Part shown: piece after piece, positions 7,258-15,937 of the stretch
How the letters are laid out: each line of letters begins with the position of its first letter
How positions within the stretch are numbered: position 1 is the first letter of the stretch
Assembly: GCA_016235065.1 (NCBI GenBank)
Contig: JACRMB010000004.1
Location: 3,629 to 67,628, forward strand
DNA: 64,000 nt
From: Actinomycetota bacterium
GTDB taxonomy: Bacteria; Actinomycetota; Thermoleophilia; BMS3ABIN01
Reading direction: 5' to 3'
Notes under the pieces: generated by a model
Told to the model about the DNA's origin: nothing
The model's input: the letters and a program-made list of their open reading frames with translations, nothing else
Database searches by the model: none
Position numbers and translations under genes: made by a program

Positions 7258-7674
7258 TTGGAGACATCCGCAGCCATAAGTTTCGAAGTCCATACGGGCC
7301 AGCCGTTCGACCAGGCCATCGAAAGCCTGACGAAGGCACTCAAGGCAGAAAGCTTCGGCATCCTCACCCGCATCGACGTCCACACTACTCTCAAGGAAAA
7401 GCTGGACAAGGATTTTCGCAAGTACGCCATCATCGGAGCCTGTAACCCGCCGCTCGCGCACCGCGCCCTCGAGCACCAGGCGGAAGTAGGTTTGATGCTT
7501 CCCTGCAATATCACTGTCGAGGAAGACCCCAAAGGCGGTTCCATAGTCCGCATAGGCGATCCCGGAGCCATGTTGAAGGGTTTTGGAATGGATCAGGACC
7601 CGGTGCTCGCCGAGGTTGGAGCCGAAGCCCGCAAGCGGCTTGAGCGGGTGGCCAGAGCACTGGAAGCTACATAA
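7258..7674 (+). CDS. DUF302 domain protein
   Basis: TTG start preceded by GGAGGAAG; motifs ILTRIDVHTTLKEKL, YAIIGACNPPLAHRAL and LMLPCNITVEED typical of DUF302. Confidence 0.65.
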   Translation: METSAAISFEVHTGQPFDQAIESLTKALKAESFGILTRIDVHTTLKEKLDKDFRKYAIIGACNPPLAHRALEHQAEVGLMLPCNITVEEDPKGGSIVRIGDPGAMLKGFGMDQDPVLAEVGAEARKRLERVARALEAT

Positions 7675-8809
7675 GCTCCCGCACAAAGAAATCGACTATC
7701 ATCGCGTTGATCTCCTGGCGTGACGGGTCGATCTCTCCACCCTGGGGAACAAAAGCGTGTCCTGCGTTCTTCACCATCACCAGCGTGGCCGGCACTCCGG
7801 CAGCCTTCAGCAGGTCATAGAGCCCCTGGGACTGGTCCGGCGGCACGAGCATGTCTGAGTCGCCCTGCAGTATCAGGAACGGTGGATCGTCCGCGGTGAC
7901 GTAGGTGACCGGGCTAGCGATCTTCAGGATCTCAGAGCCGCTGTCGCTGGTGCCGAACACCCTTGCCCCCAGTGCCTTGCCGATGGCGCCACCCTCGAAT
8001 TCCCGGGTCAGATCCGAGGGGCCGAACATGTCCACGACCGCCTGTACCCGGCTTGATTCATCCTGGTTCCCGCACGATCCCTCGAGACCGTCGTCGTCAT
8101 CCATGACTCCCAGCAGCGATACCAGATGGCCGCCCGCACTGCCGCCCCAGGCGCCGATCCTATCGGGGTCAAGGGCATACTTGCCAGCATTAGCCCGAAG
8201 ATAGCGCAACGCGCATTTAACGTCCTCGATCTGTGCCGGGAACCGGTATTCGGGCGCGAGTCGATAATTGACCGACACCACCAGGAAGCCGGCCTCCTGC
8301 AGGCTGGGGATGGTAGTGGTGCCGGCTCCGTCCTGCTTGTCGCCTTTGGTCCAGCCGCCTCCGTGGACATACATCACCACCGGCACCGGCCCGGCTGCCT
8401 TTAACGGATAATAGATATCCATCTTCAGGTCGACGCCGTTAGCCCTGCCGTAGGTCACGTCACGTTCCACGGTGCCAAGCTTTGCGGGGTCCAGCGGTAC
8501 AAAAGTGCTCGCCGCATCGCCGTCAGATCCGGTGGTCGAAGCGGTCTCTTTGCCAGTCTCAGAATTGCTGCCCGGGCTATCAGTGCCGGCGTCCGCGGTA
8601 GCGCCGGATCCATCGCCGGACAGAACGCCTGCGGAGCTTCTATCTGCGTCAGGATCTCCGCAGCCTGTAACCAGCATTATCAGTACCAGCATCATGAGCA
8701 CCAGCAGCACGACTGCAAGGGAGGTAAGGGCCGTGAATAACCTTCCCGCACGGAGGCCACGCAAAAGTCTCCGCCGGATGATACCGCCCGATGTCAGACC
8801 GGCACTCAC
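7667..8809 (-). CDS. alpha/beta-hydrolase fold esterase/lipase, lipoprotein
   Basis: MYVHGGGWTKGDK (HGGG oxyanion motif) and GGSAGGHL (GxSxG nucleophile elbow); N-terminal hydrophobic segment ending in lipobox LVTGC. Confidence 0.7.
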   Translation of the reverse strand: MSAGLTSGGIIRRRLLRGLRAGRLFTALTSLAVVLLVLMMLVLIMLVTGCGDPDADRSSAGVLSGDGSGATADAGTDSPGSNSETGKETASTTGSDGDAASTFVPLDPAKLGTVERDVTYGRANGVDLKMDIYYPLKAAGPVPVVMYVHGGGWTKGDKQDGAGTTTIPSLQEAGFLVVSVNYRLAPEYRFPAQIEDVKCALRYLRANAGKYALDPDRIGAWGGSAGGHLVSLLGVMDDDDGLEGSCGNQDESSRVQAVVDMFGPSDLTREFEGGAIGKALGARVFGTSDSGSEILKIASPVTYVTADDPPFLILQGDSDMLVPPDQSQGLYDLLKAAGVPATLVMVKNAGHAFVPQGGEIDPSRQEINAMIVDFFVRELM

Positions 8810-12057: not shown

Positions 12058-12549
12058 ATGCCATCATTCGATATCGTAAACAAGGTTGACCTGCAGGAAG
12101 TCGACAACGCCCTCAACAACACCCGCAAGATGACTCAGACGCGTTATGATTTCCGTGGGTCGAAGACCGAGATCGAGCTGAACCGCAAGGACAGCAAGAT
12201 CAGCATCCTCACCGAAGACAGCATGAAGATGAAGGCCATCGAGAATGAGCTGATCTCAAATCTGGTCAAGCGCAAGGTCGATGCGAAATCAGTGAAGTTT
12301 GGCGAGCCGGAGCGGGCTGCCGGCGATATGGTCAAGCTCGACGCGGAGATCCTCGCCGGCATCGACAAGGAAACCGCCCGCAAGATCGTAAAGATGATCA
12401 AGGAAACGAAGATGAAGGTCCAGGCGGCGATCCAGGAAGACCAGGTGCGTGTGACCGGCAAGAAGATTGACGACCTGCAGTCAGTCATTGCCCTGCTAAA
12501 GGAAAAAGACCTGGGCATGCCGCTGCAGTACATCAACATGCGCGACTGA
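12058..12549 (+). CDS. yajQ: YajQ family nucleotide-binding protein (UPF0234; cyclic-di-GMP binding in some species)
   Basis: MPSFDIVNKVDLQEVDNA...RYDFRG...KIVKMIKETKMKVQAAIQEDQVRVTGKKIDDLQSVIALL is collinear with E. coli YajQ; AGGAG RBS. Confidence 0.9.
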   Translation: MPSFDIVNKVDLQEVDNALNNTRKMTQTRYDFRGSKTEIELNRKDSKISILTEDSMKMKAIENELISNLVKRKVDAKSVKFGEPERAAGDMVKLDAEILAGIDKETARKIVKMIKETKMKVQAAIQEDQVRVTGKKIDDLQSVIALLKEKDLGMPLQYINMRD

Positions 12550-12594
12550 AACTCAGGGACACCATAGCTTTATTAGCAGGGATAAAAGGACAGC

Positions 12595-13395
12595 CTAAAC
12601 CGGCCGCATCGTCCCGAAGAACATCTGCCACGCCAGCGCCGACTTGGCCACCAGGCTGAGGATGATATACACCCTCTCACCGTAAAGGTAGTCTTTCCAC
12701 GGCCCGATCTGCCGGTACTGCAGCCACTGGTTCACGGCGAAGATGTTGAAGAAGATGAACAGCGAAACCATGATGCCGTAGACGAAGTCAGGTACTGATG
12801 TATCCGGGTACTGGTTGGACCCGATCGTGTAGAGCGCTATCACCACCCAGGGGATGATCCCCGCGAAGCAGCCGAAATAGAACGCGGTCCAGCTTGTCTT
12901 TTCCGTAGTCTGGTTATGCAGCTCCATCATGTAGCCAAAGAAGATCATGCAGGCGTTGATGCAGAAGATGAGGATCAGGCTCGAAAGGTCGTAGACGCCC
13001 ACCAACATGGCGATCAGCACTATCATGATCGACGAGCTCAGCGAATACTCCCACCAGCGCGCCTTGTTGATGTGCTGCTTGAGGTTTGCCACATACCAGT
13101 TGAATCCGAACGAAGCCAGGATGAAGTGCGCCATCGCCGACAGCAGCAGGAAGATGGCAACCATGGGTGCGATGCGCAGGGTATAAGGGTCCTGAAGATT
13201 CTGGACCAGTCTGCCGGAGGAGACATCGAATTTCAGGTAGATAGTCGACACCGGCAGTGAGAAGCTGGTGCTCAGCCACAGCATCAGCACACCCTGGCCC
13301 AGGTGCAGGCAGCCCATGATGAAGTTGAAGCGGCGAAGGCCGCCGTAGGTTATTTTACTGGCGGGCGCGGCGTCTGTAGCTAAGGCGATATTCAT
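12595..13395 (-). CDS. heliorhodopsin (7-TM retinal protein)
   Basis: Strong match to heliorhodopsin 48C12 as recalled: WWEYSLSSSIMIVLIA (TM3 with Glu counterion), FGCFAGIIPWV, VPDFVYGIMVSLFIFFN, GERVYIILSLVAKSALAWQMF (TM7 with retinal-binding Lys); GGGAGG RBS 5 nt upstream of ATG. Confidence 0.85.
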   Translation of the reverse strand: MNIALATDAAPASKITYGGLRRFNFIMGCLHLGQGVLMLWLSTSFSLPVSTIYLKFDVSSGRLVQNLQDPYTLRIAPMVAIFLLLSAMAHFILASFGFNWYVANLKQHINKARWWEYSLSSSIMIVLIAMLVGVYDLSSLILIFCINACMIFFGYMMELHNQTTEKTSWTAFYFGCFAGIIPWVVIALYTIGSNQYPDTSVPDFVYGIMVSLFIFFNIFAVNQWLQYRQIGPWKDYLYGERVYIILSLVAKSALAWQMFFGTMRPV

Positions 13396-13428
13396 TTAGG
13401 CCTCCCGGTTCCGGGGACGGGTACGATC

Positions 13429-13458
13429 ATTACAACGTGACCTATGCAGCACGCTCAA
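13429..13458 (-). promoter_or_regulatory. candidate sigma70-type promoter for the heliorhodopsin gene
   Basis: On the minus strand TTGAGC, 18 nt, TGTAAT, about 35 nt upstream of the heliorhodopsin start; no intrinsic terminator seen between the polymerase gene and the heliorhodopsin gene. Confidence 0.25.
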
Positions 13459-13552
13459 TCGATTACTACTGCCTTGGATACCGTTTCCCTTTTATCGTCG
13501 GGCTAATCTCTTGCTTCGGCGCCGGGAGTCGGTCGTCACAGGTTACTTCTGC

Positions 13553-14869
13553 TCACTTCACCTCACCCATGAACATGGGGATATTGATCCGCTGCCGCTC
13601 CGTCTCGCCCTTGAACAGCTCCTCCCGCCGCGCCGGCACGTCGCCGCGGTCGCCCAGGTGCTGCGCGAATTTATTAGCAGTGAAGCTCGAGCCCAAAAAC
13701 AGCGTGTGTTTGCCGTATTTCACCCGCACGCCGTCCACCGCCTCATAGACTCGCGCCAGCCGTTCGATGCGCGCCGTCACGCCGAAGAGGTCCGGCTGAG
13801 TGATGACGTCCTCGGTGAGCTTCAACAGAACCACGCCGGTCGACCGGTACAGCTTCGTCGGCTTGAACAGCCGCTGGAACACCGGCTCCAGCGCCGCCAT
13901 GATCTCATGGGGGAAGGCGGTGGGCCGCGAGAACTTCACCTTGGCGCCGACGCCGTGGAAATCCTGGGTCTTGAGGAAGCAGACCGCCTCCCGCGCCGCC
14001 AGCTTGTAGCGCCGCGCCTTCATGGTGGCGTTCTCCACGTTCTTGGATAGTTGGGCGAAGACGAACTCCGGGTCGCTGGACGGCGGCGTGAAGGTCTTCA
14101 CTTTCTGGATGGTGTAATAGCTCTCTTTTTCCTCGGTGTCGAGCCCCATGACCATGCGCCCGTTCAGCTCCTGCCAGGTCTCGTAGAATGGCTTGCTGAA
14201 GTTCGCTTTCACCCAGTCCTCGTCGCGCCGGGCGAAGTCGAGCGCCGTGGTGATGCCGAACTTGGCGAGATAGGCGGTGGTCTGCGGCCCGATGCCCCAG
14301 ACCTTCTCCACCGGCATGCCGCGCAGGAACTCGTGGATGTCGCGCCCGGGGATCACCGTCAGCCCCGAAGGCTTCTGCCATTTGGAGGCGATCTTGGCGA
14401 TGGTCTTGTTGGGCGCGAGCCCGGTGGAGAAGGTGAAACCGAAGGCCTCGTCCAGCTCCTCCTTCATCGCCCTGGCGATGGCCCGGTAGCCCATGCGCAG
14501 CGGCCGCTGCATGCCGGTGATATCGGCGAAGCACTCGTCGATGCCGTATTCCTCCACATCGGGCGTGTAGCGCCGCACTATGGCGAAGAAGCGTTTCGAC
14601 AGCAGGCTGTAAGTCTCGTAATCGGAGGGAAGGAAGACCGCGTCGGGGCAGAGCTTACGCACCTCGGAGAGCCGCATGGCTCGCACGACGCCACGGGCCT
14701 TGGCCTCGTAGCTCATGGAGGCGACGATGTTGCGCTCCTTGCCGGTGATCACAGGGATACCCTGGAGCTTGGGGTTCCGTGATTGCTCACACGACGCAAA
14801 AAAAGCGTCGGCGTCGATGTGGATGACCGCCCGGGGGAAGGAGCGGATGGAGAGGGGGTTGTCACCCAT
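13553..14869 (-). CDS. Y-family (UmuC/DinB-like) translesion DNA polymerase
   Basis: VIHIDADAFFASCEQSRNP (catalytic Asp motif), IDECFADITG, NIVASMSYEAKARGV; start 1 nt after the lexA stop, so translationally coupled. Confidence 0.85.
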   Translation of the reverse strand: MGDNPLSIRSFPRAVIHIDADAFFASCEQSRNPKLQGIPVITGKERNIVASMSYEAKARGVVRAMRLSEVRKLCPDAVFLPSDYETYSLLSKRFFAIVRRYTPDVEEYGIDECFADITGMQRPLRMGYRAIARAMKEELDEAFGFTFSTGLAPNKTIAKIASKWQKPSGLTVIPGRDIHEFLRGMPVEKVWGIGPQTTAYLAKFGITTALDFARRDEDWVKANFSKPFYETWQELNGRMVMGLDTEEKESYYTIQKVKTFTPPSSDPEFVFAQLSKNVENATMKARRYKLAAREAVCFLKTQDFHGVGAKVKFSRPTAFPHEIMAALEPVFQRLFKPTKLYRSTGVVLLKLTEDVITQPDLFGVTARIERLARVYEAVDGVRVKYGKHTLFLGSSFTANKFAQHLGDRGDVPARREELFKGETERQRINIPMFMGEVK

Positions 14870-14870
14870 C

Positions 14871-15443
14871 TCAATACTTCCGAATGACCGCTCGCACGAT
14901 CGCCGCGACCCGCAGCTCGTTCTCCGGCGTGATCGGCCCGAACCTGCTATTGGCCGCTTCCAGCCAGACTTTGCCGCCGCGTTTGCGGTAATACTTCATG
15001 GTCCACTCGCCGTCGACCTCGGCGATGATGATGTCGCCGTCCTTCTCGGTGACGCCCCGTTCCACCAGCACCATGTCGCCGGGCATGATGCCGGCGTCGA
15101 CCATCGACTCGCCCTGCACCTTGAGCAGGTAGGTCTGCTCCGGGCGCTTGATGAGGAACTCCTCCAGGCTCATGGTGTCCAGCAGCTCCTCCTCGGCGGG
15201 AGAGGGCCAGCCGGCCTCGACCGTGCCGAGCTGGGGCACGGCGTTGAAGCGCCGCCCCGGCAGCAGTTTGCCGGTCTCGTCGCGCTCCACGAAGCCCTGT
15301 TCCACCAGCCGGTTCACCAGTTTGTAGGTGGTTCCCTTTGAGCGCAGGCCAGCCGCCCGGGCGATCTCGGCATGGCTGGGCATGCGCCGGTTGGCCCGGT
15401 AGAAGGCGATGATCTTATCCAGATGTTTTGGTGTCTTTTTCAT
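14871..15443 (-). CDS. lexA: LexA repressor (S24 peptidase)
   Basis: N-terminal wHTH (HAEIARAAGLRSKGTTYKLVNRLVEQGFVER), cleavage-site region VEAG, catalytic Ser in VQGESMVDAGI and Lys in WTMKYY. Confidence 0.9.
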   Translation of the reverse strand: MKKTPKHLDKIIAFYRANRRMPSHAEIARAAGLRSKGTTYKLVNRLVEQGFVERDETGKLLPGRRFNAVPQLGTVEAGWPSPAEEELLDTMSLEEFLIKRPEQTYLLKVQGESMVDAGIMPGDMVLVERGVTEKDGDIIIAEVDGEWTMKYYRKRGGKVWLEAANSRFGPITPENELRVAAIVRAVIRKY

Positions 15444-15467
15444 GATGAGAGTGGGGTGACACAGTAT

Positions 15468-15487
15468 AGGCGTACGAAAGTACGCCT
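15468..15487. promoter_or_regulatory. perfect palindrome AGGCGTAC-GAAA-GTACGCCT, candidate LexA operator
   Basis: 8-bp perfect inverted arms with a 4-bp spacer, 25 to 45 bp upstream of the lexA start in the divergent intergenic region; the GTAC-N4-GTAC core resembles non-E. coli LexA boxes. Confidence 0.4.
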
Positions 15488-15538
15488 GTCAACTTTCCGG
15501 AAGGAGGGCTCTAAACGCGGGATGGTGGGGAGGAAGTC

Positions 15539-15937
15539 GTGAAAAAAGAAAGAAATGCCGAGGGACGGAAGATCATGTGGAATTTATTGGTTATGAGAAG
15601 TTTTGCCCGTGCCGCCGCAGCAGATGACCGGCCTGTTCTCATTTCCGTTGTTTGCATATTAGGCTTTATGAGCGGCTTCACTTCGCTACTGGCTCCACTG
15701 TTGCTGGTAAACCCTGTTGCCTGGCTGACGGCCTATATGCTTGTCTCAGGCATTTTCAGCCTGGCTTGCATGATAGCGCTGTGGCGCATGAGGCTTTGGG
15801 CTGTTCCGGCTTTCATTCTGTTATTCATCATCAATCAGATCGTCTGGCTGTCAGCTGGTATCTGGTCCGGCCGTGATATTCCTTTTTCACTCATGGTTAT
15901 CGCAGTCGGAATTTATTATTTCCGGGAGCTGGAATAA
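15539..15937 (+). CDS. small integral membrane protein (3-4 TM), hypothetical
   Basis: GTG start after GGGAGGAAG; hydrophobic helices; divergent from lexA. Confidence 0.45.
   Translation: MKKERNAEGRKIMWNLLVMRSFARAAAADDRPVLISVVCILGFMSGFTSLLAPLLLVNPVAWLTAYMLVSGIFSLACMIALWRMRLWAVPAFILLFIINQIVWLSAGIWSGRDIPFSLMVIAVGIYYFRELE

Follow-up and report, generated by a model that had tools for sequence, protein, structure and literature searches.

When a heliorhodopsin (HeR) gene follows a lexA gene and a Y-family DNA polymerase gene (polY) on the same strand, the question arises whether the rhodopsin belongs to a LexA-repressed SOS transcript, and whether light and DNA damage are coupled there. The case considered here lies in a 64,000-nucleotide stretch of an Actinomycetota genome (GenBank assembly GCA_016235065.1, contig JACRMB010000004.1), referred to below as the window. 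Our preferred reading, held with moderate confidence, is that HeR is co-transcribed from the LexA-controlled promoter of the lexA-polY cassette, and that the link is lineage-specific and without a demonstrated mechanistic tie.

In the list of open reading frames (ORFs), the minus-strand order is lexA, polY, HeR, with yajQ converging on HeR from the opposite side. The coordinates and order of the three genes in the initial annotation match this list exactly, and the identities are backed by Pfam and NCBIfam profiles; the convergent gene is likewise confirmed as a DUF520 gene. Lengths are given in nucleotides (nt), base pairs (bp) or amino acids (aa), and the features are:

15468..15487, no strand: candidate LexA operator within the promoter spacer, AGGCGTAC-N4-GTACGCCT, perfectly palindromic (inverted-repeat search)
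15463..15492, minus strand: cassette promoter, TTGACA-18 nt-TATACT, 11/12 consensus matches (consensus scan)
14871..15443, minus strand: lexA, 190 aa (Pfam winged helix-turn-helix (HTH) and Peptidase_S24; NCBIfam TIGR00498)
13553..14869, minus strand: Y-family DNA polymerase, polY, 438 aa (Pfam IMS, IMS_HHH and IMS_C)
13396..13552, minus strand: polY-HeR spacer, 157 bp, with a GGGAGG ribosome-binding site at its 3' end
12595..13395, minus strand: heliorhodopsin, 266 aa (Pfam PF18761, NCBIfam NF038020)
12590..12607, minus strand: weak terminator-like hairpin over the HeR stop codon (consensus scan)
12058..12549, plus strand: yajQ (DUF520, cyclic-di-GMP-binding family; Pfam, NCBIfam), the downstream boundary of the unit

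The lexA/polY junction reads TAT TGA G ATG, placing the polY start 1 nt past the lexA stop, as first annotated. An assembly artefact is ruled out because the identical locus sequence was assembled independently from two separate sequencing runs (L001, L002).

The lexA-polY cassette and its candidate operator

The 190-aa protein passes the TIGR00498 lexA equivalog cut-off (124.9 versus 110.95 bits) and falls just under the UmuD cut-off (104.8 versus 110 bits; both NCBIfam). It has an Ala-Gly cleavage site (A77-G78 in EAGWPSPA) and a Ser/Lys dyad (Ser113 in GESM, Lys150 in TMKYY) that aligns with the UmuD and LexA structures. The motif past the cleavage site is UmuD-like (AG/WPSPA here versus CG/FPSPA in UmuD, the slash marking the cleaved bond), and the best solved relative of the S24 C-terminal domain is Escherichia coli UmuD. 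With HTH and S24 domains above cut-off, a cleavage site, a dyad and a palindrome in its own promoter, the protein is predicted to be a LexA repressor.

The polymerase carries the catalytic motifs DADAFF (residues 19-24) and IDEC (110-113). Such motifs, with their catalytic acidic residues (DxD...DE) and aromatic steric gate, mark active Y-family polymerases (DinB, Dpo4), and polY is on this basis a predicted active Y-family DNA polymerase. Its best DinB scores were 214.9 against a cut-off of 371 and 214.7 against 256, and its UmuC score was 149.7 against 431 (NCBIfam); it lies below every DinB and UmuC cut-off and is therefore placed in a separate Y-family subgroup. The best solved relative is DNA polymerase IV (7yll). 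An internal clamp-binding-like motif, QPDLF, at 358-362 is followed by a 76-aa tail, and E. coli UmuC has QLNLF at about the same place; polY aligned with plasmid UmuC over 96% of its length, tail included. Among plasmids no close polY relative was found, only generic DinB/UmuC matches of ∼30% identity. Homologues 65-69% identical to polY occur in proteins source-labelled Patescibacteria and Acidobacteria, beside closer Actinomycetota ones, which suggests that lexA-polY is a widely exchanged module.

The candidate operator consists of two 8-nt arms, 100% complementary, and is a single copy in the window. All 17 cassette loci examined share the promoter and operator, as TTGACA-GGCGTAC-N4-GTACGCC-TATAMT; the 16-nt palindrome core is found once in each of them and nowhere else in 105 loci (∼1 Mb). 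The equivalent promoter stands in the matching position in L003, L007, L092, L093 and L094 (related loci and lineages are given as L numbers), and across six cassette lineages the palindrome arms are invariant and the 4-nt centre varies (TTTC, GAAC, GATC, GTTC). When metagenomes were scanned with the promoter-operator pattern, 11 of 11 exact matches lay directly before a lexA of this type. No further operator copy was seen in the window or in the ∼1 Mb of related loci, no stretch of which is known to carry recA or uvr genes, and this LexA may be a cassette-specific repressor of the UmuDAb type. The operator resembles the cyanobacterial RGTAC-N3-DGTWCB box. A word search of PMC8565304 for published LexA motifs met neither the motif strings nor the relevant phylum names in its text.

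We infer that LexA binds the palindrome in its own promoter and that lexA-polY is autoregulated. In the mechanism proposed, LexA would occupy a GTAC-N4-GTAC-type palindrome between the -35 and -10 elements, keeping its own gene and the translationally coupled polymerase gene repressed until it cleaves itself in response to DNA damage. As judged from its sequence, lexA-polY is a self-contained cassette with its own conserved promoter and operator, and it would act as an autoregulated SOS translesion-synthesis cassette whose LexA has a UmuD-like C-terminal domain.

Two other features adjoin this promoter region. In L007 (∼310-400) and L008 (∼70-160), an 18-19-bp unit, TAACCCTTGGGGGATTGC, is present in ∼4 tandem copies just upstream of the lexA promoter, and this tandem repeat is limited to the L007/L008 lineage. 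In the window, a 132-aa ORF with hydrophobic stretches and no Pfam match lies divergent from lexA (15539-15937, plus strand). Its GC content is 48.6%, and 54% at third codon positions (GC3), much below its neighbours; at its site in relatives, gene callers give a shorter 89-aa ORF or none. It may not be a real gene.

Transcription of the heliorhodopsin gene

The HeR assignment is secure. The Pfam match covers the whole profile (1-242 of 242; E = 9e-103; 343.2 bits against a cut-off of 26.7), the NCBIfam score is 353.6 bits against 100, and the protein aligns end to end with the solved TaHeR (6is6, E = 1e-76). Glu116 (in RWWEYS) and Lys251 (in SLVAKSA) align with their TaHeR counterparts and are invariant in 44 homologues; as established for TaHeR and 48C12, they are the counter-ion in helix 3 and the retinal Schiff-base lysine in helix 7. 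Base composition gives no clear foreign-DNA signal, GC3 being 83% in HeR, close to the cassette (87-89%) and to yajQ (80%). Searches of phages gave no HeR match.

Whether HeR is read from the lexA promoter depends on what separates it from polY. The initial annotation described a gap of 157 bp with no recognisable intrinsic terminator and a strong ribosome-binding site belonging to HeR itself, and both points held. No terminator-like site was predicted in 13396..13552 by the consensus scan, the spacer folds no better than shuffled sequence (z = 0.15), and it contains no Rfam match, repeat or ORF; the GGGAGG element ends 6 nt before the ATG (5 nt between). The corresponding spacers are 57 bp in L003 and 42 bp in L007, and the 157-bp one cannot be aligned with either. 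In all three lineages the lexA promoter is the only strong promoter that the scan predicts upstream of HeR, and between polY and HeR it predicts no terminator. From the lexA promoter to yajQ the minus strand has a single terminator-like site, the hairpin at 12590..12607, which likely ends the transcription unit.

A separate HeR promoter had been proposed at 13429..13458 (TTGAGC-18-TGTAAT), and this proposal was dropped. The element is weak, was not reported by the consensus scan and has no counterpart in the 42- and 57-bp gaps; its -10 hexamer lacks the conserved A in second place. The companion observation, that no convincing LexA box lies directly upstream of HeR, was borne out: there is none near HeR in the window at up to 2 mismatches (11 matches versus 17.8 expected by chance), none in the polY-HeR spacers of the relatives, and in the 105 loci the boxes are confined to lexA promoters.

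Because no terminator or consensus promoter follows polY and the spacers of the relatives are only 42-57 bp, HeR most probably stands third in an operon that LexA represses in this clade. Given the tight spacing and the lexA promoter as the sole strong one, the initial annotation rated co-transcription, and with it control of HeR by LexA, too low. Co-transcription is the simplest reading for the relatives with 42-57-bp spacers, and plausible but less secure for the 157 bp of the window. In evolutionary terms, the cassette would have come to lie immediately upstream of HeR in the ancestor of a small Thermoleophilia-like Actinomycetota clade. HeR would then be transcribed, wholly or partly, with the LexA-repressed unit, and we infer that it is DNA-damage-induced in this clade.

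Several points weigh against this interpretation. Its basis is gene spacing and consensus scans, and scans for sigma-70 and U-tract signals often miss the promoters and terminators of actinobacteria; the window's 157-bp spacer could fit a non-consensus promoter. A further point comes from synonymous divergence (dS). In comparisons of the window with L003 and L007, dS is 1.1-1.7 for HeR and 0.9-1.7 for yajQ; for the same genome pairs it is 0.33-0.49 for lexA and 0.51-0.88 for polY, 2-3 times lower. The cassette and HeR may thus have had different histories at this locus; the low cassette dS may reflect exchange or homogenisation between lineages, or tighter constraint at synonymous sites. All four genes are under purifying selection, with ratios of non-synonymous to synonymous divergence of 0.06-0.19 (0.08-0.09 for polY, 0.07-0.13 for HeR).

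These points bear on the alternative that the genes are incidental neighbours. HeR would have its own promoter, in the spacer or at the 3' end of polY, the cassette transcript would end after polY at a non-canonical terminator, and the adjacency would carry neither regulatory nor functional meaning. The weak TTGAGC-18-TGTAAT element, the strong ribosome-binding site of HeR and the separate histories suggested by the differing dS values agree with such an arrangement, as do the free change of HeR contexts (three among HeRs at least 72% identical) and the cassette's appearance as a mobile-looking two-gene unit in many contexts. However, all three lineages lack a terminator-like structure behind polY, the weak promoter is not conserved, spacers of 42-57 bp leave no room for an intergenic promoter, and closely spaced co-oriented genes usually share one transcript. 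We regard incidental adjacency as the less probable explanation, to be given about a quarter of the weight, and retain co-transcription from the LexA-controlled promoter.

Distribution of the arrangement and the other heliorhodopsin neighbourhoods

Two further lineages, L003 and L007/L008, have the same lexA-polY-HeR-yajQ order. Their HeRs are well diverged, at 72-86% identity and dS above 1 (87% for L003 and 74% for L007/L008 in the contig look-ups), and the four-gene block survives local change around it: the TfoX gene is absent in L007, and genes of 393 and 445 aa are absent in L003. This persistence is mild support for a stable unit. Genes outside the four-gene unit are also largely syntenic within the clade, and its conservation in these lineages therefore does not argue independently for selection on the linkage.

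Beyond the window lineage, L003 and L007/L008 the arrangement was not encountered. A profile scan of GTDB, taking one genome per species, yielded 80 HeR loci with HeRs of 52-79% identity, and lexA or polY was adjacent to HeR in none of the 80. A tblastn search for LexA or PolY within 8 kb of HeR in these loci gave one hit, in Dojkabacteria, 6 kb away and 25% identical. A Pfam scan of 72 HeR upstream neighbours found 68 families, none more than three times, with neither IMS nor S24 among the 72. From the other side, the cassette relatives L092/L100, L093, L094, L095 and L098 (78-84% PolY identity) keep lexA-polY with the operator, and in the five nearest relatives with a readable downstream region none has HeR behind the cassette, the flanks being unrelated. 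Wider synteny was absent from the GTDB HeR-profile scan, the metagenome promoter-operator scan and the look-ups of contigs with HeR or PolY homologues alike. A recurrent HeR partner is one whose family is the same neighbour in several unrelated taxa, and lexA-polY does not recur in this way.

Conservation of synteny, named at the outset as a test, thus holds for two additional lineages and not for the 80 GTDB HeR loci or the nearest cassette relatives. Of the light/DNA-damage coupling suggested with it, the physical linkage is real, but the synteny largely fails beyond the clade. HeR neighbourhoods are so variable that a single clade-specific adjacency is within chance expectation; this estimate assumes ∼1-2% repair-related genes, two neighbours per HeR and many independent HeR contexts.

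In a neighbour-joining tree the cassette-linked HeRs were not monophyletic; this topology is not relied on because HeR evolves faster than its flanks. In L011, two HeR paralogues lie 5 kb apart on one contig (446-1253 and 6001-6807). One of them is split into 199 and 66 aa, beside an AhpC-TSA gene that is likewise split, probably through frameshift errors of long-read assembly rather than as pseudogenes.

The sister HeRs have other partners. Three that are 80% identical (L004-L006, L010) and the one of the single close GTDB genome (L012, 79%) lie directly behind msrA, with msrB nearby. The msrA-HeR overlap is 8 nt in L004, L005 and L010, L006 has a 10-nt gap, and msrB is divergent. The loci are:

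L004, 5535-6789: msrA-HeR
L005, 2312-3566: msrA-HeR
L006, 5517-6771: msrA-HeR
L010, 5076-6330: msrA-HeR
L012, ∼7538-8789: msrA-HeR
L018, 6856-8765: co-oriented row MsrA-MsrB-HeR, in a Saccharibacteria genome

In a relative of 75% identity HeR is beside msrB only; another of 80% has a third context, and one of 66% a fourth. MsrA or MsrB lies within 8 kb of HeR in 3 of the 80 GTDB loci, against ∼1 expected. A relocation of HeR from an msrA/purE locus was considered; none of msrA, msrB, purE or purD is present in the window. The msrA-HeR loci resemble the lexA-polY-HeR locus in belonging to the same HeR clade (73-80% identity) and in having HeR distal and tightly coupled behind a damage-repair gene. 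They differ in that the partner repairs oxidised protein rather than DNA, in the 8-nt overlap and in having no LexA operator.

Some msrA-HeR neighbourhoods also hold a gene for a 2-thiouracil-desulfurase/DUF1722 fusion (L004, 3084-4136; L006, 3151-4179; L010, 3783-4853). E. coli ybgA belongs to the DUF1722 family and shares a transcript with the photolyase gene phr; the fusion may be one more association with light damage.

Bulzu et al. (PMC8612252) proposed that HeR helps to mitigate light-induced oxidative stress. The recurrence of msr genes beside HeR fits this photo-oxidative-stress hypothesis as a weak but independent indication, and the msrA-coupled sisters together with the L018 row fit it at least as well as the SOS link does. 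A role in photodamage is conceivable too, and counts against a purely regulatory link, because sister HeRs lie behind msrA and coupling of a HeR to photolyase is documented (PMC9769723).

It is here that a functional module has to be weighed, in which HeR would be a light sensor recruited to act on translesion synthesis or on the SOS switch through protein-protein contact, for example by holding the polymerase or the UmuD-like LexA at the membrane, or releasing it, according to light. Every experimentally assigned HeR partner was an operon neighbour (PMC9769723, PMC11109279), and contact is the way in which other HeRs act on photolyase, glutamine synthetase or an ABC transporter. The lexA-polY-HeR order outlasts local rearrangements at dS above 1, with the spacer tightening to 42-57 bp. 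The translational coupling of the sisters to msrA and the Saccharibacteria row, which fit the photo-oxidative-stress idea (PMC8612252), lend it some further plausibility. Yet neither the 80 HeR loci at species level nor the nearest cassette relatives show an independent recurrence, LexA and polymerases lie outside the ten recurrent HeR neighbour groups that have been published (PMC11109279), no paper linking HeR to LexA was found among those searched, and with neighbourhoods so variable chance alone should place a repair gene next to HeR in one clade. A functional module is, in our judgement, improbable. The preferred reading remains a lineage-specific co-transcription, and the arrangement may reflect regulatory hitch-hiking or local adaptation.

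Relation to known systems and what would follow

All three gene families are known, and so are SOS units of the cassette's kind. PMC6511836, citing Jara et al. 2003, describes the Geobacter lexA-imuB-C-polY cluster as a lexA operon with a Y-family polymerase. The cassette shares with such operons an autoregulated lexA co-transcribed with a Y-family polymerase as a damage-inducible unit, features that are predicted in the present case. It differs in having no ImuB-C or DnaE2 gene, another operator sequence and a rhodopsin as the third gene.

The resemblance to umuDC (Pol V) and to Acinetobacter UmuDAb is closer in layout: a promoter with an SOS operator is followed by the gene of a self-cleaving S24 protein and, directly after it and translationally coupled to it, by a Y-family polymerase gene. 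The S24 domain is nearest to E. coli UmuD, and polY aligns with plasmid UmuC including the tail. Unlike UmuD, however, the S24 protein has a winged HTH and passes the LexA rather than the UmuD cut-off, and the polymerase scores higher with DinB than with UmuC models (215 versus 150 bits), passing neither. We know of no umuDC operon that is followed by a heliorhodopsin gene.

Among HeR operons, TfHeR of Trichococcus binds an operon-encoded class 2 cyclobutane pyrimidine dimer photolyase and raises its activity ∼three-fold (PMC9769723), the report of a HeR-photolyase link to which the initial annotation referred. The HeR-photolyase, HeR-glutamine synthetase and HeR-ABC transporter operons (PMC9769723, PMC11109279) resemble the present locus in that HeR runs in the same direction as a soluble enzyme gene close by, and in the photolyase case the documented partner is a DNA-repair enzyme for UV damage. 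In contrast, those pairings recur in several genera (12 for photolyase), whereas the lexA-polY link is confined to one narrow clade and is a candidate partnership. No report of a HeR under an SOS operator or otherwise tied to LexA was found among the papers searched; the sole one containing both words, on deep-sea Actinobacteriota, was judged unrelated from its title and abstract.

The novelty would lie in a heliorhodopsin gene at the distal end of a transcript under LexA control, an arrangement that we consider probable. The layout itself is a testable lead and not evidence of a link between light and DNA repair. The strongest form of such a link, that HeR in this clade is an SOS-induced light sensor acting directly on the mutagenesis machinery, is very improbable on our estimate; for example, the UmuC-like polymerase or the UmuD-like LexA might be bound to the membrane by HeR and set free in response to light, which would tune error-prone synthesis to continuing exposure to sunlight. 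If that were true, and with the msrA-coupled sisters considered alongside, HeR would be a light gate for photodamage repair in general.

The cassette is of interest in its own right as a compact unit with its own promoter and operator, in which a UmuD-like LexA is paired with a Y-family subfamily across several source-assigned phyla. The HeR functions assigned so far have all come from testing operon neighbours, and the present locus would add a candidate partner, a translesion polymerase with a UmuD-like LexA. A HeR with a LexA operator ahead of it would be the first rhodopsin for which induction by DNA damage is predicted.

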